From a virus, in IMG/VR virus record IMGVR_UViG_3300039452_000062, positions 1-46,626 of that record: DNA of 46,626 nucleotides; one strand, 5' to 3'. The notes beneath the pieces were generated by a model, which saw only the letters and a program-made list of their open reading frames with translations, was not told the origin of the DNA and made no database searches. Below, in pieces: positions 2,158 through 46,626 of the stretch; the stretch's first letter is position 1, and every line of letters begins with the position of its first letter. Made by a program: the position numbers and the translations under genes.

Positions 2158-2643
2158 TTAAATCCTAGCAAACTCTCCATGAATATAATTTGCCGCGATT
2201 CTAGCCTTATGCGCCTCTTCTTTGGTGGCAAAGAATCCCAGCCAAGTCCTCTTGCCATTAAGGCATATGTGCGCCCTCCATCTTCCTGTCCGCTTGTCTT
2301 CTGTTACCCCTTTTATTCCTGATTGACTATCTTTTCTAACTTTACTATTACATTTATTTTGGCTATTCGTTGCAAGTCTTAGATTATCAATCCTATTGTC
2401 ATTTTTTATGCAGTTTATATGATCTATTTGGCATGTTGGATATTCTCCATAGACGTACAGCCACGCAAGCCTGTGGAAGAAATAATTTTTCCCATCGACC
2501 AGTGATCTAACATAACCTTTGCGATCAATACACGACACAATGTCACCTATTCTTGATGTTCCTGACCTATTTATTTTATTTTTAAAATAACCTGTTCTTG
2601 GATCGTACTCAAATATTTCATGCAATCTTTTTTGAGTAATCAT
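2158..2643 (-). CDS. HNH (HNH_3-type) + AP2-domain homing endonuclease
   Basis: HNH motif HRLAWLYVYGEYPTCQIDHINCIKNDNRIDNLRLATNSQN. AP2-like C-terminus GVTEDKRTGRWRAHICLNGKRTWLGFFATKEEAHKARIAANYIHGEFA. ATG 2643 overlaps the upstream stop (ATGA). The segment is visibly AT-richer than its flanks. Confidence 0.9.
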   Translation of the reverse strand: MITQKRLHEIFEYDPRTGYFKNKINRSGTSRIGDIVSCIDRKGYVRSLVDGKNYFFHRLAWLYVYGEYPTCQIDHINCIKNDNRIDNLRLATNSQNKCNSKVRKDSQSGIKGVTEDKRTGRWRAHICLNGKRTWLGFFATKEEAHKARIAANYIHGEFARI

Positions 2644-2855
2644 GATACCGTACCATTGTTGCAAGTGTCGCCTCGACTATCTACCGTGTGGACGACAGCA
2701 TTCCCTGTTATCTCATTAACGATTGCGGTGGCGATGGCCTGATAGAGCGCCGTGCGGTATGCATCCACCGATCCAGCCCCGACAATTTGAACAGCTGATA
2801 CCGCATCAACGGCGGTCTTTATGCTGCTCGCTAACCTTGTTGCGCTGAGTGTCAT
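2640..2855 (-). CDS. small baseplate-module protein, unknown function
   Basis: 71 aa from ATG 2855, in an ATGA overlap with the stop of the spike gene. The track ORF start at 2918 lies inside the upstream gene. Confidence 0.5.
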   Translation of the reverse strand: MTLSATRLASSIKTAVDAVSAVQIVGAGSVDAYRTALYQAIATAIVNEITGNAVVHTVDSRGDTCNNGTVS

Positions 2856-18906: not shown

Positions 18907-20182
18907 TTAGTAACCCTCGTTATTGCCCAGACCAATTGCGATTCCGTAAGTAAAGGTGTCCAGCAAGTCATCAGCGCGCTTCGCCGCGTCCTTATCTCCG
19001 ATCCTGAACCCCGTCACCTGTGTCATGAGATGGTTTCTTGTCTGGCCTTTAAAGGTGGTCACTTTATCATAGGCACGCTGGGATATCTTGATCTCGCCTC
19101 GGTAGAGATAGCCGGAAACGCTGATGGCGCGCTCATCCTTACCAACCGCAGTCAGTTTGCTGTCGATTGCAGTGGCAGGAAGGCCGCGCCGCGCCGCTTG
19201 CTGCAATAGGATGGTGCCACTAGCCTTGTCCTCAATAAAAGTGCCAGCAGAGCCGTATGTAGCCTTGCATATGCGTGCCATCATTTCCAGATTTTCAAGC
19301 ACGGTGGGGAGCCATGTTTCCAGCAAAGCGCCCTCAATCTGGACAATATCCCAATCGAGAATCACAAGCGGATGGCCGAAGTGCTTTGAGCGCGCCCAGT
19401 AAGTTACAGCGGTGCCGTCATGCTCCTGCCCCGCCTTTACCGCGCTGTCAATCGTGGCATAGACATAATCGACGTTTTCAGGCCAGATAATAGGCTGCCC
19501 ATCCACCAGCAGCTTATCAGCGCTGAAGAATGCCACGCCAGACCAATCAACGAACTCCGCAAGGAATTCCTGACGGAAGACTAACGGGTGATTTCCCTTG
19601 CGCTCCTTCTCCAGTTCATCCAGCGGCACATATGGATTGTTTGCAGTGGGCGCGTGATGCTGCGTGAATCCCAACTCAGCATCATTGCAGGCCTGGAAAA
19701 AGAAGTTCTCGGGGTCGTTCCCGTTTGGCGTAGAGTAGACCCATGCGCTGCCCTTGGTCGTGAGCATCGTGGGCTTGATTGCCTTATCCCAGATGTCGCG
19801 CATGTTCTTTTTCGTGAATGCGGCTTCATCAATATGGACTTCGTGATACTCGCGGCCTCGACCTGCCAGATCATTGTCGTTAAGCGTCCAGAAGTCAATC
19901 TGTCCGCCAGTCGTCACCAGCATGACGCCTTCAGAGCGGTTGAAGGTATCGCGAATTGGGCGCAGAATTCCTTTCAGCTCGCGCCAAGGCTCCGCACCTT
20001 GTCGGTACTCGGGGGTAAAGATGCCGATTTTCTTTTTCTTCACACAACGGTCGGCGGCCATTGTGACCATGAACTTAGTCTTGCCGAAATCGACGGCCAC
20101 ACCGGACCGCATTGTATCGGCCCCGATTCATGAAGATGTCAATTTGCCCTTCGTGCAAATCCGGTAGCGTGATAGTTGGCAT
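18907..20182 (-). CDS. terL: terminase large subunit, reading frame broken near the Walker A codons
   Basis: Track ORF 18907..20112 lacks an N-terminus. An upstream frame (ATG 20182, SD GAGAGGG) reads MPTITLPDLHEGQIDIFMNRGRYNAVRCGRRFRQD-stop. Removing one T of the TTT at 20087-20089 gives ..VRCGRRFGKTKFMV.. (P-loop). Confidence 0.8.
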
Positions 20183-20235
20183 GTTCCCTCTCTGTTGCGA
20201 AATCCTAACACGCTCAGAAATTTCTCAAAATGTGC

Positions 20236-20319
20236 TTTACCGCATGTGATTCTTTATGTATTATCTCTACATGGACGCAGCGCACTGGGCGCGGCGATGG
20301 ATGAGAGGAAGAAATCATG
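20236..20319 (+). promoter_or_regulatory. sigma70-like promoter (TTTACC-N17-TATTAT) plus conserved leader, copy A
   Basis: -35 at 20236-20241 and -10 at 20259-20264. The 68 nt at 20252-20319 match 37054-37121 with 2 mismatches, including the SD GAGAGGAAG and the ATG. Confidence 0.5.
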
Positions 20320-20541
20320 GAAATCAGCGCATCGTATAGCATACAGCGAGGAACCGATAAATGCCAAAAAGGCGTCATGTTTGTTTTTACTGACGGCAGC
20401 GCTATGGAGCGTTTCGTAGGCGGAAAAGAACTTTTCTATACCAAAGCTTCGATCCGTGACCGCCGCACTTTGAACCCAAAACAAAGCGCTAAGCGTATCG
20501 AGGAAATGAAAGCCGCCGCCGCAAAACGTTTCGCCGCCTAA
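20317..20541 (+). CDS. hypothetical protein (74 aa), first ORF of cassette A
   Basis: ATG preceded by AGAGGA at 7 nt. It lies downstream of the conserved promoter/leader. Confidence 0.55.
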   Translation: MEISASYSIQRGTDKCQKGVMFVFTDGSAMERFVGGKELFYTKASIRDRRTLNPKQSAKRIEEMKAAAAKRFAA

Positions 20542-20590
20542 CCCACCCGCGCCCTTCGTGGGCGCTTAACTGAAAGGATTGGATCATGGA
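20541..20590 (+). repeat. conserved intergenic linker 2, copy A (GC hairpin + SD)
   Basis: acccacccgcgcccttcgtgggcgcttaactgaaaggattggatcatgga is nearly identical to 37361-37410. Hairpin GCGCCC-ttcgt-GGGCGC lies at 20549-20565. Confidence 0.7.
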
Positions 20591-20717
20591 ACTTCTCACC
20601 AACATGGCCCCGATGCTGGTCTACAACCTGCTCGACGATGGCTTTGGCAATCTGGTCATCGTGCGCGCAAACAGCTGGGCCGCTGCCTACTACCACGTGC
20701 ATGGCCGCATGATCTGA
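20586..20717 (+). CDS. hypothetical small protein (43 aa)
   Basis: ATG 20586 with AAAGGA 7 nt upstream. Product is MELLTNMAPMLVYNLLDDGFGNLVIVRANSWAAAYYHVHGRMI. It is below the ORF-track size cut-off. Confidence 0.4.
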   Translation: MELLTNMAPMLVYNLLDDGFGNLVIVRANSWAAAYYHVHGRMI

Positions 20718-20718
20718 T

Positions 20719-20775
20719 CCGCCACCCACAGCACCACCCATCGCCGCGCATGACGCGGCTTTGGGGCTGAGAGGG
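20719..20775 (+). repeat. conserved intergenic linker 3, copy A (hairpin GCCGCG-catga-CGCGGC + TTTGG)
   Basis: Matches 37596-37652 almost exactly and 38146-38193 partially. The hairpin is at 20743-20759. Confidence 0.7.
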
Positions 20776-20809
20776 TTTCTCTCATCAAACAACATAGGAG
20801 AATCAAACC

Positions 20810-21103
20810 ATGAGCAAAGAACACCCATTCGTAGGCCTTTACGTGATCGCTCGCTGCTATTCTGCTGGCGTGCATGCTGGTGAGGTTGCCAGCGTGGATG
20901 GCGAGAATGTCATCCTGAAAAATTCGCGCCACCTGTGGAACTGGACGGCCAAGGATGGCGTAGCCCTGTCCGGCGTGGCCCAGCATGGGCTGAAGAAGGG
21001 CGGCAGCAAGCTGGACGTGATTAATCCTGAAATCTACCTGACCGGCGTCTGCGAGCTGATCCCTGTTGCAGACGGTGTGCGCGAGCAAATCCATGGTTAC
21101 TAA
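20810..21103 (+). CDS. conserved small phage protein, unknown function
   Basis: 97 aa with SD AGGAG 8 nt upstream. The pattern VIARCYSAGVHAGEV...VILKNSRHLWNW...GVALSGVAQHG recalls a widespread small phage protein family whose name I cannot give with certainty. Confidence 0.65.
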   Translation: MSKEHPFVGLYVIARCYSAGVHAGEVASVDGENVILKNSRHLWNWTAKDGVALSGVAQHGLKKGGSKLDVINPEIYLTGVCELIPVADGVREQIHGY

Positions 21104-21389
21104 AAAAATCTGGCGCTCCGGCTACGGCTACGGCTACGGCTACGGCGACGGCTCCGGCGACGGCTCCGGCTACGGCTCCGGCTACGGCGACGGCTACGGC
21201 TCCGGCTCCGGCTACGGCTACGGCTACGGCTACGGCTACGGCGACGGCTACGGCTACGGCTCCGGCTCCGGCTACGGCTACGGCTACGGCTACGGCGACG
21301 GCTACGGCTACGGCTCCGGCTACGGCGACGGCTACGGCTCCGGCTCCGGCTCCGGCTACGGCTACGGCTCCGGCTACGGCTACGGCTAA
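21093..21389 (+). CDS. Gly-Tyr-rich low-complexity protein (98 aa): MVTKKIWRS + (Gly-X)44-Gly
   Basis: ATG 21093 lies inside the last 11 nt of the upstream gene. X = 26 Tyr, 12 Ser, 6 Asp. A hairpin with T-tract follows the stop. Coding status is unproven because the tract is open in several frames. Confidence 0.45.
   Translation: MVTKKIWRSGYGYGYGYGDGSGDGSGYGSGYGDGYGSGSGYGYGYGYGYGDGYGYGSGSGYGYGYGYGDGYGYGSGYGDGYGSGSGSGYGYGSGYGYG
21117..21386. repeat. perfect tandem hexanucleotide array, 45 units of GGC-[T/G][A/C]C
   Basis: Only GGCTAC, GGCTCC and GGCGAC occur, uninterrupted over 270 nt. Confidence 0.95.
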
Positions 21390-21412
21390 TCACATCAAAT
21401 TACCTCACCCAT

Positions 21413-21438
21413 AGCCCTGCTAGACAGGGCTTTTATAT
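21413..21438 (+). terminator. intrinsic terminator after the Gly-Tyr ORF
   Basis: AGCCCTG-ctaga-CAGGGCT followed by TTTTATATT. Confidence 0.65.
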
Positions 21439-24415: not shown

Positions 24416-24880
24416 TTAGTCATCTGGTAAACCGCCCTCGATTTTGATCGTCCCGCTGTCACCTTCATCGGCTTTGACATCGCCCCATTTCTTTGGGCGG
24501 ACCTTCCCAGCGTACCAACGTATCGCATCGTACTGGAGGCGGCGATGCTGGATCATATCACCCCGTTTAACCTTGACAATAGTTCCATCTGGGCCAGTAG
24601 TGGTTTCCGTCTCCTCCCCAAACTCGGGCGTGCTAATGATTTGCAATGCCTTTTCAACAAGCGTATCGGCACGTAATTCACATGCGCGCGCGTATTGTTT
24701 TTGGAAAAGGGGAAACTCTTCTAGCCACTTCATCACAGTACTGATATTCGGCATATTGTCACTTCGACAAATAGCGCGCAAACTTTCCCCCTCCGTGATC
24801 CGTTCAAGAATCTCGTCTGCTGTTTCTGTGTCGAATGGCTGTCGTTCCCTTCGGCGCTTTTTTGGCTCTGCTTCAGTCAT
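24416..24880 (-). CDS. terS: terminase small subunit
   Basis: 154 aa. ..ILERITEGESLRAICRSDNMPNISTVMKWL..FQKQYARACELRADTLVEKAL...RRLQYDAIRWYAGKVRPKKWGD matches the HTH-type small terminase pattern known from many proteobacterial phages. Confidence 0.7.
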   Translation of the reverse strand: MTEAEPKKRRRERQPFDTETADEILERITEGESLRAICRSDNMPNISTVMKWLEEFPLFQKQYARACELRADTLVEKALQIISTPEFGEETETTTGPDGTIVKVKRGDMIQHRRLQYDAIRWYAGKVRPKKWGDVKADEGDSGTIKIEGGLPDD

Positions 24881-31282: not shown

Positions 31283-31374
31283 TTGATCCCTCGATATATT
31301 GTTGAGCGCGCCTGCGCGATATGTGCACTATCGCACATAACTTGACGCTCATCAAGCATATTGTTGAGATATCT

Positions 31375-31626
31375 CTACAAAATGAGACAATCATCAATGC
31401 ACATTTGTCGGGCATCTGTTTTGACGTAGATTGAGTGCTTGCCATTGATCTTTTGATCGCAGTCGGGCAGGCCGCGAGATATGGCTATGGCGCAAGCTTC
31501 ATGGCATGTAGCCACTGGCGAAGTGCTGAACATGCAGCCGCTGCAGCTATGGTTTGAGTTGGCCTCACGGACGGTGAAAGAGAGGCCTGCTGCGGATAGA
31601 TAGATTGGCTTAGGACGACGACCCAC
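31375..31626 (-). CDS. Cys-rich hypothetical protein (83 aa, GTG start)
   Basis: GTG 31626 with GGAG 7 nt upstream. It overlaps the ninG end by 17 nt. Confidence 0.4.
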   Translation of the reverse strand: MGRRPKPIYLSAAGLSFTVREANSNHSCSGCMFSTSPVATCHEACAIAISRGLPDCDQKINGKHSIYVKTDARQMCIDDCLIL

Positions 31627-32302
31627 GGCGTTTCTCCAAGCGTTTAATTTTTCGCCGCATGATTATCGAAAACCTGATTAAATAATCATGGTCGTAAACA
31701 CGACTACGGTCAGCGGTTTTGAGCCATTCGACACGATCATCCCCGATCTTTAAGCGCAACCTCTTCTCATACTCTGCTATGTTCCCGGATTTAAATAGGT
31801 TGCACTGGGCGCAACCCTTATGTATGTTCAGAAGATTAAAGCGAAGATTTGAATTGCTACCAACGCTCTTAAAGTGCGACGCATGCCATGCGCCGTCATA
31901 ATGCGCAGGCATAGGGCATGAAATACAATTCTCGTCCTTATCACGCAAAACAACATAGCGATTGACCAAAACTTGCAGGGCAGCTAGCCGCTCCCTAATC
32001 GACATACCTTGTTCTTTTCGTCGCTTTGCCTCCGCTCTTTCGGATTTTTCCTTGGCGGCCTTTTGTTTCGCTAACTTTTCAATGGCTAGTACAGTTCCGC
32101 AATCAACACTGCACCAATCTTTCCAAGGCTGCGATGGGTCCGGAATATAAGATGTGCGACATGCGCGATTCTTGCACTTCTTGGGGCGCGGCCCTTTAGG
32201 TGGCTTCGGAATGCTGATGAATGGCGTCCGCTTGAGTGGTGTTGTTCTTTTCAAGTTCAATCGATTCCTCTTTTTCTCTTCGTGCGATGTCGTCGCGCAC
32301 AT
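31610..32302 (-). CDS. ninG: NinG-family recombination protein (start uncertain: ATG 32302 or TTG 32260)
   Basis: Aligns by eye with lambda NinG: KKCKNRAC...WCSVDCG..., CISC...WHASHF...LRFNLLNIHKGCAQCNLFKSGN. Confidence 0.8.
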   Translation of the reverse strand: MCATTSHEEKKRNRLNLKRTTPLKRTPFISIPKPPKGPRPKKCKNRACRTSYIPDPSQPWKDWCSVDCGTVLAIEKLAKQKAAKEKSERAEAKRRKEQGMSIRERLAALQVLVNRYVVLRDKDENCISCPMPAHYDGAWHASHFKSVGSNSNLRFNLLNIHKGCAQCNLFKSGNIAEYEKRLRLKIGDDRVEWLKTADRSRVYDHDYLIRFSIIMRRKIKRLEKRRGSSS

Positions 32303-32610
32303 CGGCCTCCAGCTCACCATAGCGCCCGCAGCGCACGCGAACCTCATATTCTGGATTGTGGATGCAGTAGGGAGACTTGATGCGATGCGTGAAGTGATAC
32401 CCCCTCGCAAGTGCATTGGTCTTTGCGATACTGGCGCGCCTTATCCAGATAGAAGACAGGCCCAATCACCGGCTTCTTATCTGATCCAGGCGGCGGAATA
32501 AACTCAGCATGGCCGCAATGTTTGCATTTCGGTGCGCGCTTGTACCACTCATACTTATGCTTGAGCGTGTTCCTGCCGCGACAACATTTGCAGCGATAGG
32601 CCCAGCTCAT
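32196..32610 (-). CDS. zinc-finger protein, reading frame broken at a G5 (plus-strand C5) run
   Basis: Track ORFs 32344..32610 and 32196..32465 overlap. Deleting one G at 32400-32404 joins ..RKDQCTCEG to YHFTHRIKSPYCIHNPEYEV.. The downstream ORF has no independent start. Confidence 0.55.
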
Positions 32611-33039: not shown

Positions 33040-33165
33040 AGCCCTCTCATCTGTAGAGCTTGCATCCTATCACAACAATTATCTCGAACTTTCTTTGCGC
33101 TGTTGCAAAAATGATGCTTGACATGATCCATAATGTTTGACATCATTGATCCATCGCAGCCACTT
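33040..33165. promoter_or_regulatory. divergent early control region with repeated TTGACAT / GATCCAT motifs
   Basis: TTGACAT at 33118 and 33137. GATCCAT at 33125 and 33148. TTGACA-N17-CATCAT is a possible rightward promoter. Promoter assignment is tentative. Confidence 0.35.
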
Positions 33166-33336
33166 TGCAGATAGCACTGGGAAGCGATGGAACGGAAGCC
33201 TGCGGCAATATGTTGTTCCTTAAAACAAAGGCAGGCACCACACGCATGCAACTTGACTATCTCTTGTGCGGACCTTAAGCAAGTCAAGCGGGATCGGGAA
33301 TGCTGAAACCGACAGGTTGCAGTCGTGTGGTTCAGT

Positions 33337-33440
33337 GGGGTCATAGGGTCTTTGGTTATCGATGAATGTATAGGACGCTATATACACGTAATCTAAGGAC
33401 CTGACTGGGATGGGGAGTTCGATTCTCTCTGACCTCCCAC
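33337..33440 (+). ncRNA. tRNA-like module 1 (canonical T-arm and acceptor pairing, ~100 nt, no recognisable anticodon arm)
   Basis: T-arm GGGAG-TTCGATT-CTCTC at 33413-33429. The 3-prime strand TGACCTC pairs with GGGGTCA at 33337-33343. The interior is ~28 nt too long for a tRNA. Confidence 0.25.
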
Positions 33441-33443
33441 AAT

Positions 33444-33518
33444 GCGGGTGTAGCAAAATGGAAATGCATTGGCTTTCCAAATCTCTATGCGCGAGTTCGA
33501 TTCTCGCCGCCCGCACCA
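33444..33518 (+). ncRNA. tRNA-like module 2 (degenerate tRNA-Gly(UCC)-like, 75 nt, ends ACCA)
   Basis: Acceptor GCGGGTG/CGCCCGC, D-arm GCAA-AATGGAA-ATGC and T-arm GCGAG-TTCGATT-CTCGC are all present. The loop TTTCCAA looks like a UCC anticodon loop, but its flanks TTGGC/ATCTC do not pair. Confidence 0.35.
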
Positions 33519-33525
33519 GTTTTAT

Positions 33526-33602
33526 GCGCTTGTAGCTCAGATGGTCAGAGCCATGGACTCATAATCCATAGGTCACTGGTTCAAATCCAGTCAGGCGTAC
33601 CA
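33526..33602 (+). tRNA. tRNA-Met (anticodon CAU; Ile2/lysidine type cannot be excluded)
   Basis: 77 nt. Acceptor GCGCTTG/CAGGCGT (two G-U pairs), D-arm GCTC-AGATGGTCA-GAGC, anticodon arm ATGGA-CTCATAA-TCCAT, T-arm ACTGG-TTCAAAT-CCAGT, and an encoded CCA. Confidence 0.9.
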
Positions 33603-33603
33603 T

Positions 33604-33679
33604 GCTGCAATAGCTCAGATGGTAGAGCGGCTGCCTTGTAAGCAGCGGGTCGCGGGTTCGATGCCTGCTTGCAGCACCA
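33604..33679 (+). tRNA. tRNA-Thr (anticodon UGU)
   Basis: 76 nt. Acceptor GCTGCAA/TTGCAGC, anticodon arm GCTGC-CTTGTAA-GCAGC, T-arm GCGGG-TTCGATG-CCTGC, and an encoded CCA. Confidence 0.92.
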
Positions 33680-33906: not shown

Positions 33907-34695
33907 ATGTCAAATGAATTGGAGTTGGTCGACGACCGACAGGGCGCAGCTTTGCCCGTCGTTCAGCAGAATAATCAAGTTCGTACCACTGGCAGCACCC
34001 CCGCTGATCTGGTGCGCTATGCAATGGAATCCGGTGCTGATCTGGATCGCCTGGAGCGCCTGATGCAGATGCAGGTTGAATGGGAAAAGCGCGAAGCTGA
34101 GAAGGCCTATCATGCAGCGGTTGCAGCCTTCAAAGAAAATGCGCCGACGATCCGCAAGAACAAAACTGCGGACTTCGCCACGCAAAAGGGCCGCACCACC
34201 TACGATTTTGCTACGCTAGGGAATGTGGTTTCGATGATCGTTCCAGAACTGGCAAAGCACGGCCTCTCGCATCGCTGGGTTCCTGACCAGAATGGTGCGC
34301 TGATCGGCATCACCTGCATTCTCACACACCAGCAAGGCCACAGCGAAAGCATCCGCCTTGAGGCCTCCAAGGACGAGAGCGGCGGCAAGAACTCAATACA
34401 GGCTATCGGCTCCGCAAAGAGCTACTTGGAGCGCTACACGCTTCTGGCTATCACTGGTCTTGCTGTCGAAGATAGCGAGGATGACGATGGGAAGTCTTTC
34501 TCGAAGGACGATCTTGACACCTCTCTTGCTGATGAATGGATCGCAAAGGTGAAGGCTGCCCCCACCGATCAAGATGTAATCGCAGTATGGAACGCAGGCG
34601 CGGCCAAGATGGAAGACCGCCCGCATGACTTCAAAGAATTCCAAAAGGCTGTTGCCAGCCGACGCTACGAACTCAACCAGAACAAAGGGCAGTGA
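33907..34695 (+). CDS. erf: Erf-family single-strand annealing protein (alternative start 33895)
   Basis: ..IQAIGSAKSYLERYTLLAITGLAVEDSEDDDG.. parallels P22 Erf ..GATSSYARKYCLNGLFGIDDAKDAD.. ATG 33907 has GGAG 6 nt upstream. Confidence 0.75.
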   Translation: MSNELELVDDRQGAALPVVQQNNQVRTTGSTPADLVRYAMESGADLDRLERLMQMQVEWEKREAEKAYHAAVAAFKENAPTIRKNKTADFATQKGRTTYDFATLGNVVSMIVPELAKHGLSHRWVPDQNGALIGITCILTHQQGHSESIRLEASKDESGGKNSIQAIGSAKSYLERYTLLAITGLAVEDSEDDDGKSFSKDDLDTSLADEWIAKVKAAPTDQDVIAVWNAGAAKMEDRPHDFKEFQKAVASRRYELNQNKGQ

Positions 34696-34696
34696 A

Positions 34697-35353
34697 ATGA
34701 AGATTCTTGACTATCGCCAGGGGACCGCTGAATGGCTGCATGCTCGCGCAGGGCTTTGCACGGCATCGGAGTTCAAAAACGCTGTATCCATTTTGCAGCG
34801 GGCCTCTGGTGGTCGTGCTGCTGGCGAACCATCCAGTGACGCCCTCAAATATGCCGCCGACCTTGCCATCGAGCGCATCAGTTGCAAGCCATGGGGTGAG
34901 CCGATCAAAGCATGGGCATTGGAGCGCGGTCATGCTCTGGAAGATGATGCCCGCCGCATCTATCAGGCGCGCCACAAAAAATTCGTCACTGAATTCGGCC
35001 TCGTCACCGACGATGAAAGTAAGTTCGGTTACAGCACTGATGGCCTTCTCAACGATGAGAATGGCCTGATCGAAATCAAATGCCCAGTATCGAGCATGAA
35101 GATTCTTGATATGTGGGCGAATGGCGATGTATCCGAATATATTCACCAGATGCAAGGCGGCATGTGGCTCACTGGTCGCAAATACTGCGATCTGATTATG
35201 TACGTCCCGGACCTGAAACCCGCAGGAAAAGACCTGTTCGTAAAACGGGTGTTCCGCGACGACGACTTCATTGACGCCATGGTATTGCAGCTACACAAGT
35301 TCCAGATCATGGTAGAAGAAAACGTAAAAATTCTCACTCAAGAAAAGGAGTAA
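34697..35353 (+). CDS. YqaJ-type (lambda Exo-like) recombination exonuclease
   Basis: 218 aa from ATG 34697, 1 nt after the erf stop. It contains QGTAEWLHARAGLCTASEF and ..STDGLL...GLIEIKCP (D..E.K). Confidence 0.8.
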   Translation: MKILDYRQGTAEWLHARAGLCTASEFKNAVSILQRASGGRAAGEPSSDALKYAADLAIERISCKPWGEPIKAWALERGHALEDDARRIYQARHKKFVTEFGLVTDDESKFGYSTDGLLNDENGLIEIKCPVSSMKILDMWANGDVSEYIHQMQGGMWLTGRKYCDLIMYVPDLKPAGKDLFVKRVFRDDDFIDAMVLQLHKFQIMVEENVKILTQEKE

Positions 35354-35355
35354 TC

Positions 35356-36627
35356 ATGTCCCATATTTCGACTGAAGTTAAATCCGATCAACAGCAGCAG
35401 GTTGGCGCACTGGCGCTGATTACCCTCCAGCCCGAGCAGTACGCAAAGGAGGTCTACCAGCCGTTCTACGACCGCCGCGCCAAGGCCATCGAATCGCTGC
35501 GCGCCATCGACTACGATATCCAGACCACGAAGGGCATGGAAGTCGCCGTCAAAGCGCGCCGACTGGTGGCAGATATCCGCATCGAGGCCGAGAAAGAGCG
35601 CAAGGCGCGCAAGCAACCAATCACGCAAATCGGCAAGTTGCTGGAATCCAGCTACAACGATCTGGAGGCCCAGCTCCTGCCGCTGGAATCGCTATTTGAT
35701 GACGACATCAAGGCAGAGGAAAAGCGCAAGGAAGAAATCAAAAAGGAGAAGGAGCGGGCAGAGGCGGCACGCATTCAGGAAATCAGTGACCGCATCGCCG
35801 CCATCAGCAAGCTGCCCATGAAAACGGGCCGCATGTCATCTGCTCAGATTCAAGACGTGATCGATGAGCTGACTGGCATCCAGATTGACGACAGCTTTGC
35901 TGAATTCATCCCGGCCGCCACCAAGGCATGGGTTGAGGCGCGCGATGCCCTCAAGGCCTCTTTTGATGCCGCTGCCGAGGATGAAGCCGAGGCTTATCGC
36001 AAATGTATCATCGCCGAAGAGGAAACCCGCAAGCAGGCCCGTGAGCGCGCTGAACTGGCCGCTAAGCAGGCCGAACTTGAACGCATCGCCAACGAACAGG
36101 CAGCGGAACGCAAGCGCTTGGCTGATGAGCAAGCGGCCATCGAAACAGCTGCCGCCGAACAGCGCCGCAAGGCCGAAGAGAATTTGCGCGCCGAGGCAGA
36201 GGCCCAGGCTGCGCGCCTTAAAGCCGAAGCCGAAGCACATGCCGCCGAGATGAAGCGGCTGGCCGATGAGCTGGCCGCCGAGCGCGCAAAGTTTGAGGCT
36301 GCACAGGCAGCGCAAAAAGCTAAGGATGATGTCGAGCTGAAAGCGAAGGAAGATGCGGCGCGGCTGGAGGCTGACAATGCTGAGGCCATCGAGATTGATA
36401 AAGCCATGGGCCAGGTTGTGAGCGACTTCAATGCAGCAACTATGGTTTCCATGCCCGATTTACCAGTAGATGATCCGAATGGAGAAATTCTTGACGCCGC
36501 CGACGCGATAGACGCCGAGCCCACTGATGAAGAAATCGTTGAGCTATACATCCAGCACTTCGGCGGCTCACCAGAGCAGGCAATCGAGCGGCTATCGCGC
36601 TTCGCTATGACCGTGGCCCATGGATAA
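35356..36627 (+). CDS. coiled-coil protein of the recombination module, unknown
   Basis: 423 aa with SD AAGGAG. It has a long Ala/Glu/Lys/Arg heptad-like central region. Confidence 0.6.
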   Translation: MSHISTEVKSDQQQQVGALALITLQPEQYAKEVYQPFYDRRAKAIESLRAIDYDIQTTKGMEVAVKARRLVADIRIEAEKERKARKQPITQIGKLLESSYNDLEAQLLPLESLFDDDIKAEEKRKEEIKKEKERAEAARIQEISDRIAAISKLPMKTGRMSSAQIQDVIDELTGIQIDDSFAEFIPAATKAWVEARDALKASFDAAAEDEAEAYRKCIIAEEETRKQARERAELAAKQAELERIANEQAAERKRLADEQAAIETAAAEQRRKAEENLRAEAEAQAARLKAEAEAHAAEMKRLADELAAERAKFEAAQAAQKAKDDVELKAKEDAARLEADNAEAIEIDKAMGQVVSDFNAATMVSMPDLPVDDPNGEILDAADAIDAEPTDEEIVELYIQHFGGSPEQAIERLSRFAMTVAHG

Positions 36628-37051
36628 GCGAGTCTTCATCCTGGCTCACGAAGGCGCACGGGACAACGCGGCGCAGTTCTGCCGTGAAGCTCCGGCTGGC
36701 TGGAAAGTCACGTTTTCACCAGCCACGCGCAACAACGAGCAAAACGCCAAGATGCACGCCATGATTGGCGACATATCCAAGCAAGTTCAGCATGTAGGCC
36801 GCTACTGGGCGCTGGATGACATGAAACGCATCCTTGTCGATGAGTTCGCGGAAGAAATGCGCCTTGCTGGAACACCTCTGCATCACGATGGGCGCGTTGT
36901 CCCGAGCATGGACGGGCGGCGAATTGTCCAGCTTGGCTGCCAAACGCATGAGTTCTATGTCGGCGAGGCTTCGGCTTTCATCGAATGGCTCTACATGTTG
37001 GGCGCAAACCACAATGTTCGTTGGAGCGAAAAATTTCTTTACAGGGAATAA
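36620..37051 (+). CDS. ninB: NinB (lambda Orf-family) recombination mediator
   Basis: RNNEQNAKMHAMIGDISKQVQHVGRYW aligns with lambda RSLDQNRKLWACLGDVSRQVEWHGRWL. The C-terminus ..FIEWLYMLGANHNVRWSE aligns with ..LLELIQAFGTERGVKWSDE. Confidence 0.88.
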   Translation: MDKRVFILAHEGARDNAAQFCREAPAGWKVTFSPATRNNEQNAKMHAMIGDISKQVQHVGRYWALDDMKRILVDEFAEEMRLAGTPLHHDGRVVPSMDGRRIVQLGCQTHEFYVGEASAFIEWLYMLGANHNVRWSEKFLYRE

Positions 37052-37121
37052 TCCTTTATGTATTATTTCTACATGGACGCAGCGCACTGGGCGCGGCGAT
37101 GGATGAGGGGAAGAAATCATG
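37038..37121 (+). promoter_or_regulatory. sigma70-like promoter (TTTACA-N17-TATTAT) plus conserved leader, copy B
   Basis: -35 at 37038-37043 and -10 at 37061-37066, overlapping the ninB stop. 37054-37121 matches 20252-20319 with 2 mismatches. Confidence 0.5.
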
Positions 37122-37361
37122 AAAACATACGAACAAGCCAAAGGCAACAAAACCAGCCTGCAGCGCGGCATGATCGAAATGTGCATCTATGACGAATCCG
37201 AAGCTAAGCTGAGCGCAATCGACGCCATTCTGCGCAAACAGTTCGACAGCACTGACTGCATGGACGAAACCGGCAATGGCTACGAAATCTCTTTCGTTAT
37301 CGCCCGGTTGTTCAAAGAGGATTTTATGGTCGCCTACAAGGAAGCCAAGAAAGCAATCTAA
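37119..37361 (+). CDS. hypothetical protein (80 aa), first ORF of cassette B
   Basis: Uses the same SD/ATG context as 20317. The protein is not similar to the cassette A counterpart. Confidence 0.55.
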   Translation: MKTYEQAKGNKTSLQRGMIEMCIYDESEAKLSAIDAILRKQFDSTDCMDETGNGYEISFVIARLFKEDFMVAYKEAKKAI

Positions 37362-37410
37362 CCCCACCCGCGCCCTTCGGGGTGCTTAACTGAAAGGATT
37401 GGATCATGGA
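37361..37410 (+). repeat. conserved intergenic linker 2, copy B (C-UUCG-G hairpin + SD)
   Basis: accccacccgcgcccttcggggtgcttaactgaaaggattggatcatgga. The hairpin is CGCCC-ttcg-GGGTG. Confidence 0.7.
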
Positions 37411-37594
37411 CACCACGCTTACTTTCCGCGCCAAGTATTCAAACCCCAATGAATCCGGGCCGCGCTACATGCTGATCGGCGGGCGCGGAATTGAGAATCA
37501 GGAGTCAGCGACTCGGTACTTTGAGCGCACATGGAAGAACAGCGATGTTCAGGGCGTTGAGCTATTGAAAATGGAATGTCTTGGCTACGTTTAA
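37406..37594 (+). CDS. hypothetical protein (62 aa)
   Basis: ATG in the conserved AAAGGATTGGATCATG context. Confidence 0.5.
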   Translation: MDTTLTFRAKYSNPNESGPRYMLIGGRGIENQESATRYFERTWKNSDVQGVELLKMECLGYV

Positions 37595-37595
37595 C

Positions 37596-37652
37596 CCGCC
37601 ACCCACAGCACCACCCATCGCCGCGCATGACGCGGCTTTGGCGCTGAGAGGG
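37596..37652 (+). repeat. conserved intergenic linker 3, copy B
   Basis: Near-identical to 20719-20775. Hairpin GCCGCG-catga-CGCGGC is at 37620-37636. Confidence 0.7.
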
Positions 37653-37689
37653 TATGCCACCCGATCAACCTAACCTAAAGGAACCCAAC

Positions 37690-38115
37690 ATGAAACGCAT
37701 TCTGATTCTGGCAACCGCAGCAATCCTGGCCGCCTGCGGCGGTGGCAACGTTCACGCTCAAAACCTGACCCAGGCGACTCTGGAAACCCAGGTGCACTTC
37801 GGCACCGGCACCGTCGACATCGAGCATGCCCGCATGGTCGACCTGGACCCATCCAACAGCGTTATCGTGGACGCTAACGGCGTAACCCACCAAGGCAGCT
37901 TCGCCTACGTCAGCGCCTTCTCGGGTTCCAAGGCCTTCCCGAAATACATCCAGGAATACCCTGGTGCACGCCGTTACTGGAACGCCAGCATGTTCAACAT
38001 CTCATGCGTCAACGGTAACACATCGCGCCTGAGCTGGATCAACGGCGGCACTACCGACCTGGCCGACGGCTGCTCGCTGCAAATCCAAGTCTTCAACTGG
38101 GCGCGCAACAATTGA
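37690..38115 (+). CDS. lipoprotein (141 aa)
   Basis: ATG 37690 (SD AAAGGAA). Signal peptide MKRILILATAAILAAC carries the lipobox LAAC. Confidence 0.75.
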   Translation: MKRILILATAAILAACGGGNVHAQNLTQATLETQVHFGTGTVDIEHARMVDLDPSNSVIVDANGVTHQGSFAYVSAFSGSKAFPKYIQEYPGARRYWNASMFNISCVNGNTSRLSWINGGTTDLADGCSLQIQVFNWARNN

Positions 38116-38123
38116 TGATGTAT

Positions 38124-38193
38124 AGCGCTCCTCGGAGCGCTTAATCACAGCAACACCAATTGCCGCTCATGAAGCGGCTTTGGTGCTGAGATG
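38124..38193 (+). repeat. hairpin AGCGCTC-ctcg-GAGCGCT followed by linker 3, copy C
   Basis: Linker copy at 38146-38193 with hairpin GCCGCT-catga-AGCGGC at 38162-38178. It differs from copies A/B by a compensatory G:C to T:A change. Confidence 0.65.
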
Positions 38194-38214
38194 GAACATA
38201 AAAAGAGGAATGCA

Positions 38215-38388
38215 ATGTCAAATAAAGAAAGCTCGGCTATGGAGCGCACGCGCAAACTTGTGACCGCGAAGCGCGGAGCGATGACGGTTACGCAGGCTTG
38301 CGAAAAAACCGGCATTGCCCGTAACAGCGTCTATCGCGCCCGGTGGTACAAGACCTGGAAAGCGAATCAACAGCTCAACAAGGAATAG
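38215..38388 (+). CDS. small HTH-like DNA-binding protein (57 aa)
   Basis: ATG 38215 with SD AAGAGGAA. Motif ..MTVTQACEKTGIARNSVYRARW... Confidence 0.5.
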   Translation: MSNKESSAMERTRKLVTAKRGAMTVTQACEKTGIARNSVYRARWYKTWKANQQLNKE

Positions 38389-46474: not shown

Positions 46475-46626
46475 GGGGCAATGCTCACATTGTATGAATA
46501 TTCGAAGGGCAATTCTACAACGCCAGCATTTATCGCCGCCTGCAAGATCGGCGCAAGCGTGGTATCAACATATTCGCGAATGATGAGCTTTATATCGTTC
46601 AGTTCCCATGTGTTGAACTGGCCGGT
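46471..46626 (-). CDS. 3-prime end of the gene also shown at 1..612 (duplicate representation across the junction)
   Basis: Same frame as 1..612 through the repeat. The stop is TGA at 46471-46473. Confidence 0.6.
   Translation of the reverse strand, partial: TGQFNTWELNDIKLIIREYVDTTLAPILQAAINAGVVELPFEYSYNVSIAP
46480..46626. repeat. terminal direct repeat, copy 2
   Basis: Identical to bases 1-147. Confidence 0.95.

Follow-up and report, generated by a model that had tools for sequence, protein, structure and literature searches.

A widespread scaffold of structured non-coding elements flanks variable small accessory genes in uncultivated phages

Introduction

Two gene cassettes in the virus record IMGVR_UViG_3300039452_000062 from IMG/VR raise the question of how closely similar non-coding sequences come to surround unrelated genes. 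We analyzed the whole record of 46,626 nucleotides (nt; hereafter the window), which is a complete phage genome of ~46.48 kb, bases 1–147 being repeated at 46480–46626. Cassette A (20236–20809) and cassette B (37038–37689) each consist of a promoter with a leader, a first open reading frame (ORF1), linker 2, a second open reading frame (ORF2) and linker 3. The initial annotation had proposed that the linkers are recombination joints for the exchange of small accessory genes and had described the pattern within one genome. Here we compare the two cassettes with each other and with their relatives in other phages, and weigh what the shared parts may do.

Results and Discussion

The Two Cassettes Share Their Non-coding Parts but Not Their Genes

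The leader, linker 2 and linker 3 are common to both cassettes, as had been described. The promoter and leader regions (20227–20323 and 37029–37125) are 87% identical, and the 54-nt core of the leader gave two matches against 0 expected by chance, the sole mismatch falling on the wildcard position of the pattern. The copies of linker 2 (20538–20590 and 37358–37410) have an identical 26-nt 3′ part, CTTAACTGAAAGGATTGGATCATGGA (0 expected by chance), and their hairpins differ by a 1-nt indel in the loop and one G-C to G·U change. Linker 3, which is made up of a post-stop CAGCACCACC box, a GCCGCG hairpin, UUUG and a CUGAGAG box, is 98% identical between 20719–20776 and 37596–37653. The third copy of linker 3 reported in front of the gene at 38215 is indeed present (38138–38195, 76% identity), and its stem has changed from GCCGCG/CGCGGC to GCCGCT/AGCGGC in a compensatory manner. 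At this third joint we correct the earlier description by an extra hairpin (38124–38141), located directly 3′ of a lipoprotein gene. The features are listed in Table 1.

The genes between these parts are unrelated. With 74 and 80 amino acids (aa) for ORF1 and 43 and 62 aa for ORF2, their sizes are as previously given. BLASTP yielded no alignment of ORF1A with ORF1B and only E = 4.9 for ORF2A with ORF2B. A comparison of the ORF1A and ORF1B family profiles, which are shallow and built from each family's own relatives, gave an hhalign probability of 0.3%. The two proteins are thus not divergent homologues but belong to separate small families, each of which is found in other phages. ORF1B was modeled as a small beta-alpha-beta-beta-alpha protein with a predicted local distance difference test score (pLDDT) of 84, and a fold search gave no significant match in PDB (best E = 0.02). 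Since the model is confident and has no significant PDB match, ORF1B is by this prediction a real ORFan protein.

Two such cassettes could in principle stem from a plain segmental duplication in the window genome, after which the ORFs would have diverged very fast and the non-coding parts would have remained unchanged. The scaffolds would agree with this, as they are 87–100% identical even where phages vary, for example in the 26-nt tail of linker 2. However, the drop in identity from ~100% to a random level coincides exactly with the start and stop codons, the ORFs differ in length, the profile comparison was negative, ORF1A and ORF1B lie in separate families of other phages, and a relative (L074, see below) has a third ORF pair at the same site. 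These observations already contradict the duplication, which we regard as barely credible. Because A and B are identical even at positions that are variable between phages, the shared parts of the two cassettes appear to have a recent common ancestry or to have undergone gene conversion.

The Scaffold Recurs With Different Cargo in Distant Phages

One to three of the elements were found in more than 40 public phage contigs. Covariance models of the leader (R1), linker 3 (R2) and linker 2 (R3) were searched over 46 loci, where the order was always leader, linker 2, linker 3 on one strand, with no reversed case. Nine arrays have all three elements, five have the leader and linker 3, and about nineteen the leader and linker 2. 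Rather than being special to one genome, the pattern is widespread, and the window holds two copies of it. The leader-bearing phages have few early genes in common with the window, at 30–45% amino-acid identity.

The hairpin core of the leader occurs in 61 IMG/VR contigs; about 32 of these show the full layout, the remainder being matches in coding sequence. This layout is a variable sigma-70 promoter, ~7 nt, CATGG(AC), GCAGCGC-ANNGG-GCGCGGC, a Shine-Dalgarno (SD) sequence and ATG, with a spacing of CATGG-N19-GGAATTGGAGAA. The two central bases of the A-N-N-G-G loop are free to vary. What usually follows 3′ of the leader is a small ORF, TAA, a C-rich tract, a GC hairpin with a UUCG or UACG loop, ~8–12 nt, an SD and ATG, which is the layout of linker 2. 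A relaxed linker-3 pattern led to seven more loci, each with a diverged leader, linker 2, linker 3 and different cargo. Exact scans of IMG/VR gave no match to linker 2 or to a long leader string and three chance matches in coding sequence to the linker-3 tail. The same tail gave five chance matches in the genome contigs scanned, none of them with a hairpin, and no prophage copy was found this way. In 66 IMG/VR loci anchored on TerL or NinB, blastn and model R1 detected neither linkers nor diverged leaders.

Some phages have two or three leader-type hairpins (L102, 2037–3749; L137, 6923–11428). One of those in L102 lies between ORF1 and ORF2 (2344–2393), and in L160, L162 and L164 a leader-like hairpin with the A-N-N-G-G loop comes after linker 3. 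Composite joints built from several of the elements are thus possible.

A metagenome scan with the core of linker 3 returned one true relative, L074. Its layout comprises TerL, a promoter and leader as in the window, a 68-aa ORF1, linker 2, a 69-aa ORF2, linker 3 and the next gene, and both ORFs are unrelated to the window cargo. Promoter A can be aligned with promoter B and with that of L074, and in the three-way alignment of A, B and L074 identity stops at the ATG and resumes at the stop codons. Two relatives by TerL (L081 and L082, 80–82% identity) keep the promoter and leader at site A in front of two further ORF1s. In L082 the leader and ORF1 are followed directly by a diverged linker 3, and in L081 site A consists of the promoter, one ORF and an intrinsic terminator. 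Replacements were also seen in L091, L105 and L106, near-identical phages with ~95% identity on both flanks and three unrelated ORF1s. Here homology breaks off shortly past the 3′ side of the leader hairpin, so that the SD of L105 comes with its cargo, and is back at TAACACC before the joint hairpin.

Cargo families were also found to move between slots, scaffold variants and genome positions. The ORF1A family reappears in L166 and the ORF1B family in L160 and L167, L166 and L167 having been fetched through cargo homologues. L166 has the ORF1A relative, linker 2, a new ORF2, linker 3 and a superinfection-immunity gene, and adjoins lysis genes; in L167 a leader precedes the ORF1B relative, and a DNA polymerase A gene lies upstream. 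One family occupies different slots in two phages (L085_o1 matches L102_o3). Overall, 30 leader-driven first ORFs fell into 26 BLASTP clusters. Among 43 slot proteins scanned, Pfam matches were obtained for 2 and PHROG matches for 7. Superinfection immunity (PF14373; PHROG ‘immunity to superinfection’) is the sole function annotated among them; the other Pfam match is ProRS-C_1. The gene after the last joint is often conserved. One protein family is present in six loci, as ORF2 in five and as ORF6 in one, and reads as XRE/Cro-like.

The linkers thus flank variable cargo in L074, L082, L159–L167 and ~30 leader-bearing IMG/VR loci, and these comparisons support an exchange of small accessory genes at conserved joints, from which we infer recombination. 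Neither of the outcomes that the initial annotation had named as refuting its proposal was observed, hidden homology having been checked by profiles for ORF1. The exchange is documented between genomes but not between the two loci of the window.

An array of small promoterless ORFs behind one fixed promoter, each ORF followed by an imperfect inverted repeat, is reminiscent of integrons, as is the highly variable ORFan cargo. The hairpins would then be folded-DNA, attC-like sites, and a site-specific recombinase would capture cassettes behind the promoter. Yet neither an IntI-type integrase nor another site-specific recombinase was found in the ~40 window proteins scanned or in the Pfam matches of the neighbors. 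The joints lack the attC architecture (a palindrome with extrahelical bases) and, instead of repeating one att site, consist of three distinct elements whose order is fixed. Breakpoints fall at no single fixed position, as the SD brought in by L105 illustrates, and short perfect stems, UNCG loops and G·U pairs are features of RNA. Mainly because no integrase was found, we consider an integron-like mechanism very improbable.

The Elements Resemble RNA Structures

In curated joints that had not been selected on linker 2, 96.8% of the cells of the linker 2 hairpin are paired, with GC/CG flips at two positions in 8–9 of 22 sequences. None of 500 shuffles reached the score, and slid controls gave at most 65%. 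The leader hairpin is 89.6% paired in a small, partly pattern-selected set, three pairs having changed on both sides, and again 0 of 500 shuffles reached the score. For the inner stem of linker 3 we found 100% pairing and two compensatory events in a set of which half was obtained using the stem. In L162 and L164, whose leaders contain G·U pairs, the sense strand is 5–6 kcal/mol more stable than the antisense strand. The G·U pairs, the UNCG loops and this advantage of the sense strand point to action in the transcript and not in duplex DNA.

No match beyond noise was obtained for the elements in Rfam at E ≤ 10, the window yielding only three tRNAs, and the leader sequence did not occur in the searchable literature. 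The promoter scan detected no promoter in linker 2 or linker 3. Neither was called as an intrinsic terminator on the plus strand, where a GC-rich hairpin with an immediate U-tract (≥ 5 of 8) was the criterion; linker 3 has only UUU and linker 2 no U-tract.

Three further candidates were rejected. An extended outer stem of linker 3, formed by the C-rich box and the UGG.GCUG tail, gives a good fold in the window copies but lacks conservation between phages. Pairing of the C-rich tract with the SD, which would sequester it for translational coupling, is weak and inconsistent. A leaderless mini-ORF starting at the conserved CATGG was discarded because the CATGG-GC and CATGGAC-GC variants place the hairpin in different reading frames.

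Joints without a hairpin (TAA, C-rich tract, SD, ATG) were seen in L168 (1–420) and in linker 2 of L164. As the C-rich tract persists at such joints, it may have a role of its own.

Since strongly conserved, structured and strand-specific elements stand in a fixed order in very distant phages, the scaffold points to a cis-regulatory RNA function. The proposal of recombination joints is supported in part, as breakpoints and comparative evidence speak for an exchange of cargo there, but the linkers are probably not mere joints. Recombination at them would then be a by-product of the regulatory function or an additional use.

Dedicated transcription control is one form that such a function could take, with recombination only incidental. 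It would amount to antitermination of the nut/put kind, or to a regulated terminator, for which a particular protein of the phage or host would be the reader. Recognition sites that part immediate-early slots from the genes after them would be the leader hairpin, on the one hand, and the CAGCACCACC box with its hairpin and UUUG, on the other. The presence of two identical promoter-proximal copies in a genome is reminiscent of nutL/nutR and putL/putR, and conservation at the sequence level includes an unpaired C-rich, G-poor box beside a hairpin, followed by UUU. The fixed order of the elements would also fit, as would the helix-turn-helix (HTH) gene after the last joint of the window; the six-locus family lies at this place or shortly downstream and is XRE/Cro-like by sequence only. 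Conserved hairpins between small early genes of one transcript are known from the RNase III sites of the T7 early operon and from the lambda nut/tR1 regions, to which the elements show no similarity in sequence or Rfam. Lambda tR1 has a C-rich tract beside a hairpin, and the T7 R-sites are long irregular stems. Unlike lambda nut, with boxA and a boxB hairpin that has a GNRA-like pentaloop, and unlike the two-stem put RNA of HK022, the elements have no Rfam match and no boxA- or boxB-like sequence visible by eye, no N-, Q- or other antiterminator-like protein was recognized, and the A-N-N-G-G loop of the leader varies freely in its two central bases. The tetraloop hairpins are also without U-tracts, and at linker 2 there is no obvious terminator to overcome. 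We therefore judge this explanation decidedly unlikely.

Expression Signals May Double as Patches for Gene Exchange

Considering the conservation and order of the elements together with their covariation, the cargo and the breakpoints, we find it fairly probable that the shared scaffold provides the cis-acting RNA expression signals of an accessory-gene operon and also serves as homology patches for exchange of the cargo. The scaffold would be a set of three expression elements of a moron-type operon that is widespread in uncultivated, probably betaproteobacterial, phages. In the leader, a sigma-70 promoter would start a transcript that opens with a GC hairpin, followed by an SD; linker 2 would contribute the post-stop C-rich tract, a hairpin with a UUCG-type tetraloop and an SD, and linker 3 its CAGCACCACC box, GCCGCG hairpin, UUUG and CUGAGAG box. 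The 5′ and intercistronic hairpins would most likely stabilize, process or attenuate the polycistronic mRNA and set the translation of each slot.

During homologous recombination between co-infecting phages or prophages, crossovers would occur inside the elements, because these are the only sequence common to otherwise unrelated cassettes, and an ORF would be replaced from start to stop. The phage itself probably supplies the enzymes for the exchange, ERF annealase and the exonuclease together with NinB and NinG, which act on short, diverged homology. On identical and on 22%-diverged DNA, recombination by an Erf/Exo pair is as efficient as with lambda Red, and it is stimulated by Orf and Rap (PMC3945230). 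The second cassette may have arisen when the scaffold or a whole cassette was copied into the site between terS and terL, after which different ORFans filled the slots.

The same data could be explained if the linkers were purely regulatory and the ORFs were replaced by illegitimate recombination or insertion, as in classical moron accretion, so that the linkers had no part in the exchange. The strong, structure-dependent conservation in very distant phages speaks for this, as do the swapped cargo at hairpin-less joints (L168 and linker 2 of L164) and L081, a classical moron of promoter, one ORF and intrinsic terminator. In contrast, repeated independent replacements are bounded within a few nucleotides by conserved blocks, and illegitimate events would rarely restore intact joints on both sides 26 times. 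Stretches of 53–97 nt at 87–100% identity are moreover ample for annealases of the ERF/Red type, and the phage encodes the full toolkit. A purely regulatory role appears rather improbable to us.

Several points weigh against the combined role in expression and exchange. Functional selection alone could keep the linkers intact, so breakpoints located there are no proof of homologous recombination, and relatives without the hairpin that have nevertheless swapped cargo exist (L168; linker 2 of L164). For exchange between A and B within the window genome the evidence is just two single-nucleotide polymorphisms shared in L074. The leader set was partly fished with the stem itself, which inflates its invariance, and the CAGCACCACC box is invariant yet unpaired, which a simple stabilizer hairpin does not explain. 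Promoter activity, the 5′ end, processing and termination are predictions from the DNA sequence.

A more far-reaching version, which we put forward only tentatively and do not think probable, is that the leader hairpin, the UUCG joint and the CAGCACCACC box with its hairpin are three undescribed cis-regulatory motifs of phages. They might form a plug-and-play platform, selected to express and recruit ORFans, for example for superinfection exclusion or counter-defense. A specific host or phage factor might read this platform for processing, antitermination or translational control.

The Scaffold Resembles the Stem-Loop Cassettes of T4-Type Phages

The scaffold is a novel form of the principle known from the promoter-early stem-loop (PeSL) of T4-type phages, the most similar system that has been described. 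PeSLs are conserved non-coding cassettes of ~100 nt with a sigma-70 promoter, a stem-loop and an SD, which flank ORFans in hypervariable regions and supply expression signals to the enclosed gene (Arbiol et al., 2010; PMC2839356). Where close relatives differ by an insertion, deletion or replacement, the PeSLs mark its limits, and short-homology recombination was proposed and, for mini-circles, shown (PMC2839356). The window scaffold likewise has a stem-loop and SD in a conserved intergenic piece, here with covariation-backed hairpins and an SD and ATG after each, and likewise flanks ORFans whose replacements between close relatives are bounded by the elements. It differs in that every PeSL has a promoter, whereas here only the leader has one, so that each array has one promoter and promoterless joints. 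PeSL stems are G/C runs shown to terminate; here we find tetraloop hairpins without U-tracts and an element with a C-rich box. Instead of one repeated motif there are three distinct elements in fixed order, and they occur in a lambdoid-like phage (ERF/NinB/NinG), in one relative with a family-A DNA polymerase and across very distant phages.

Modular exchange and gene-boundary linkers in lambdoid phages were reportedly described by Susskind and Botstein, by Juhala et al. in 2000 and by Clark et al. in 2001. Those linkers are also short conserved sequences at gene boundaries that were proposed as crossover points for trading modules of equivalent or accessory function, in phages with the same nin-region-type recombination genes, but they are rare, short and without defined structure or order, whereas the elements described here are structured, covarying, ordered and present twice in one genome.

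Morons, also discussed in PMC2839356, are promoter-gene-terminator units in phage genomes. Classical morons lack conserved flanks, and their proposed route of entry is illegitimate recombination. Like these, the cassettes would be autonomously expressed accessory genes between conserved genes, and their cargo includes superinfection-immunity and lipoprotein genes. L081 matches a moron exactly; island A of the window, which begins with cassette A, has a promoter and a terminator-like site, and cassette B is located inside a longer operon. The difference is in the flanks, which here are a conserved, reusable scaffold with several slots.

The scaffold offers a sequence-defined example, outside the T4 group, of linker-type modular phage evolution, an idea under debate for a long time. 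With breakpoints mapped to a few nucleotides and recombination genes in the same genome, the linker idea becomes directly testable, and three structured, strongly conserved motifs absent from Rfam pose a question of phage gene expression. The slots hold almost only ORFans, the few annotated ones being superinfection-immunity or envelope proteins. Covariance models of the elements could therefore allow a cheap harvest of candidate host-takeover, exclusion and anti-defense genes from metagenomes, much as aca genes have been used to find anti-CRISPRs. If the tentative platform reading were true, the motifs would be beacons for such genes across uncultivated phages.

Genome Setting and Minor Features

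Table 1. Features of the two cassettes, the third joint and selected genes of the window.
Feature	Position	Strand	Basis and remarks
Promoter A, predicted sigma-70-like (TTTACC, 17 nt, TATTAT)	20236–20264	+	Promoter scan; divergent from TerL gene
Leader A: CATGGAC, hairpin GCAGCGC-ACTGG-GCGCGGC (20277–20295), then SD GAGAGGAAG	20267–20316	+	Model R1, 55 bits
ORF1A, 74 aa, slot 1	20317–20541	+	ORFan; one relative, P0123, 71% identity
Linker 2 A: TAA, C-rich tract, hairpin GCGCCC-UUCGU-GGGCGC (20549–20565), then CUUAACUGAAAGGAUUGGAUC AUG	20538–20588	+	Model R3, 53.6 bits
ORF2A, 43 aa, slot 2	20586–20717	+	No homologue; weakest coding call
Linker 3 A: C-rich box CACAGCACCACC, hairpin GCCGCG-CAUGA-CGCGGC (20743–20759), then UUUGGGGCUGAGAGGG	20715–20786	+	Model R2, 76.6 bits
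DUF6948 gene, first after the joints of cassette A	20810–21103	+	Pfam PF22253, E = 1.3e-24
NinG/Rap junction endonuclease	31610–32416	-	PHROG 171, E = 1e-60; PF05766
ERF single-strand annealing protein and YqaJ exonuclease	33907–35353	+	Pfam PF04404, PF09588; candidate recombination machinery
NinB/Orf recombination mediator	36620–37051	+	Pfam PF05772, E = 5e-19; directly upstream of cassette B
Promoter B, predicted sigma-70-like (TTTACA, 17 nt, TATTAT)	37038–37066	+	Promoter scan; directly after ninB
Leader B, hairpin 37079–37097	37069–37118	+	Model R1, 54.7 bits
ORF1B, 80 aa, slot 1	37119–37361	+	ORFan; relatives in slot 1 of L160, L167
Linker 2 B: hairpin GCGCCC-UUCG-GGGUGC (37370–37385, one G·U pair)	37359–37408	+	Model R3, 54.5 bits
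ORF2B, 62 aa, slot 2	37406–37594	+	ORFan
Linker 3 B, hairpin 37620–37636	37592–37663	+	Model R2, 82 bits
Predicted lipoprotein (MKRILILATAAILAACGG...), slot 3	37690–38115	+	Lipobox read from translation
Third joint: hairpin AGCGCUC-CUCG-GAGCGCU (38124–38141), then diverged linker 3 (hairpin 38162–38178)	38124–38205	+	Model R2, 65.8 bits
57-aa HTH protein, opens tightly packed conserved part of operon	38215–38388	+	Weak HTH Pfam matches

Most structural and lysis genes are on the minus strand. A leftward early operon extends from ~33.0 kb to terS (24.4 kb); among its genes are those for an HTH protein, NinG, a ParB-like protein, a primosomal protein and DnaC. Three tRNAs at 33.4 kb open the rightward operon, ahead of ERF, the YqaJ exonuclease, a 423-aa protein and NinB; within this operon, ninB is immediately followed by cassette B, and the genes downstream of the HTH gene at 38215 are without joints. 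Cassette A forms the head of a plus-strand island inserted between terS and terL. The window phage is also contained in an ENA assembly and an NCBI metagenome-assembled genome, and blastn of GenBank phages with both cassettes and the leader returned no real nucleotide-level relative. Because TerL relatives with ~60% identity are carried by Burkholderia and Caballeronia genomes, the host is likely betaproteobacterial.

In the window, terS (24416–24880, minus strand) and terL (18907–20112, minus strand) are ~4.3 kb apart, and the gap contains a gene with a GDSL-lipase domain, a 220-aa gene and the island of cassette A. The two genes abut in the relative L005. Just after the DUF6948 gene lies a tandem 12/18-nt repeat (21061–21436), which encodes an ORF of Gly-Tyr/Gly-Ser/Gly-Asp repeats (21066–21389), and the terminator scan placed the terminator-like site of the island at 21413–21431. 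Judged from offsets of the gene calls, the ENA and NCBI assemblies of the phage (L070/L071) apparently lack ~138 nt of the array, so that the length of the repeat may be polymorphic.

Both cassettes have an inverted repeat, ATGTA-N7-TACAT (20252–20272 and 37054–37074), whose position overlaps with the -10 box and start site of the promoter. It may serve as an operator; an HTH gene is present after cassette B. The repeat is not kept in L074 (TATAT).

Upstream of the ParB-like gene, at 31283–31374 on the minus strand, a GCGC-AGGC-GCGC hairpin and an SD come after a sigma-70-like promoter. The hairpin is possibly a third 5′ hairpin of the leader type in diverged form, to which model R1 gave no match. 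The main divergent control region (33040–33440) has no leader hairpin, and the three tRNA genes at the head of the rightward early operon (33444–33676) lie just after it. Finally, an HNH endonuclease gene (2158–2664, minus strand; PHROG 99, E = 2e-64) is located among the tail and baseplate genes.

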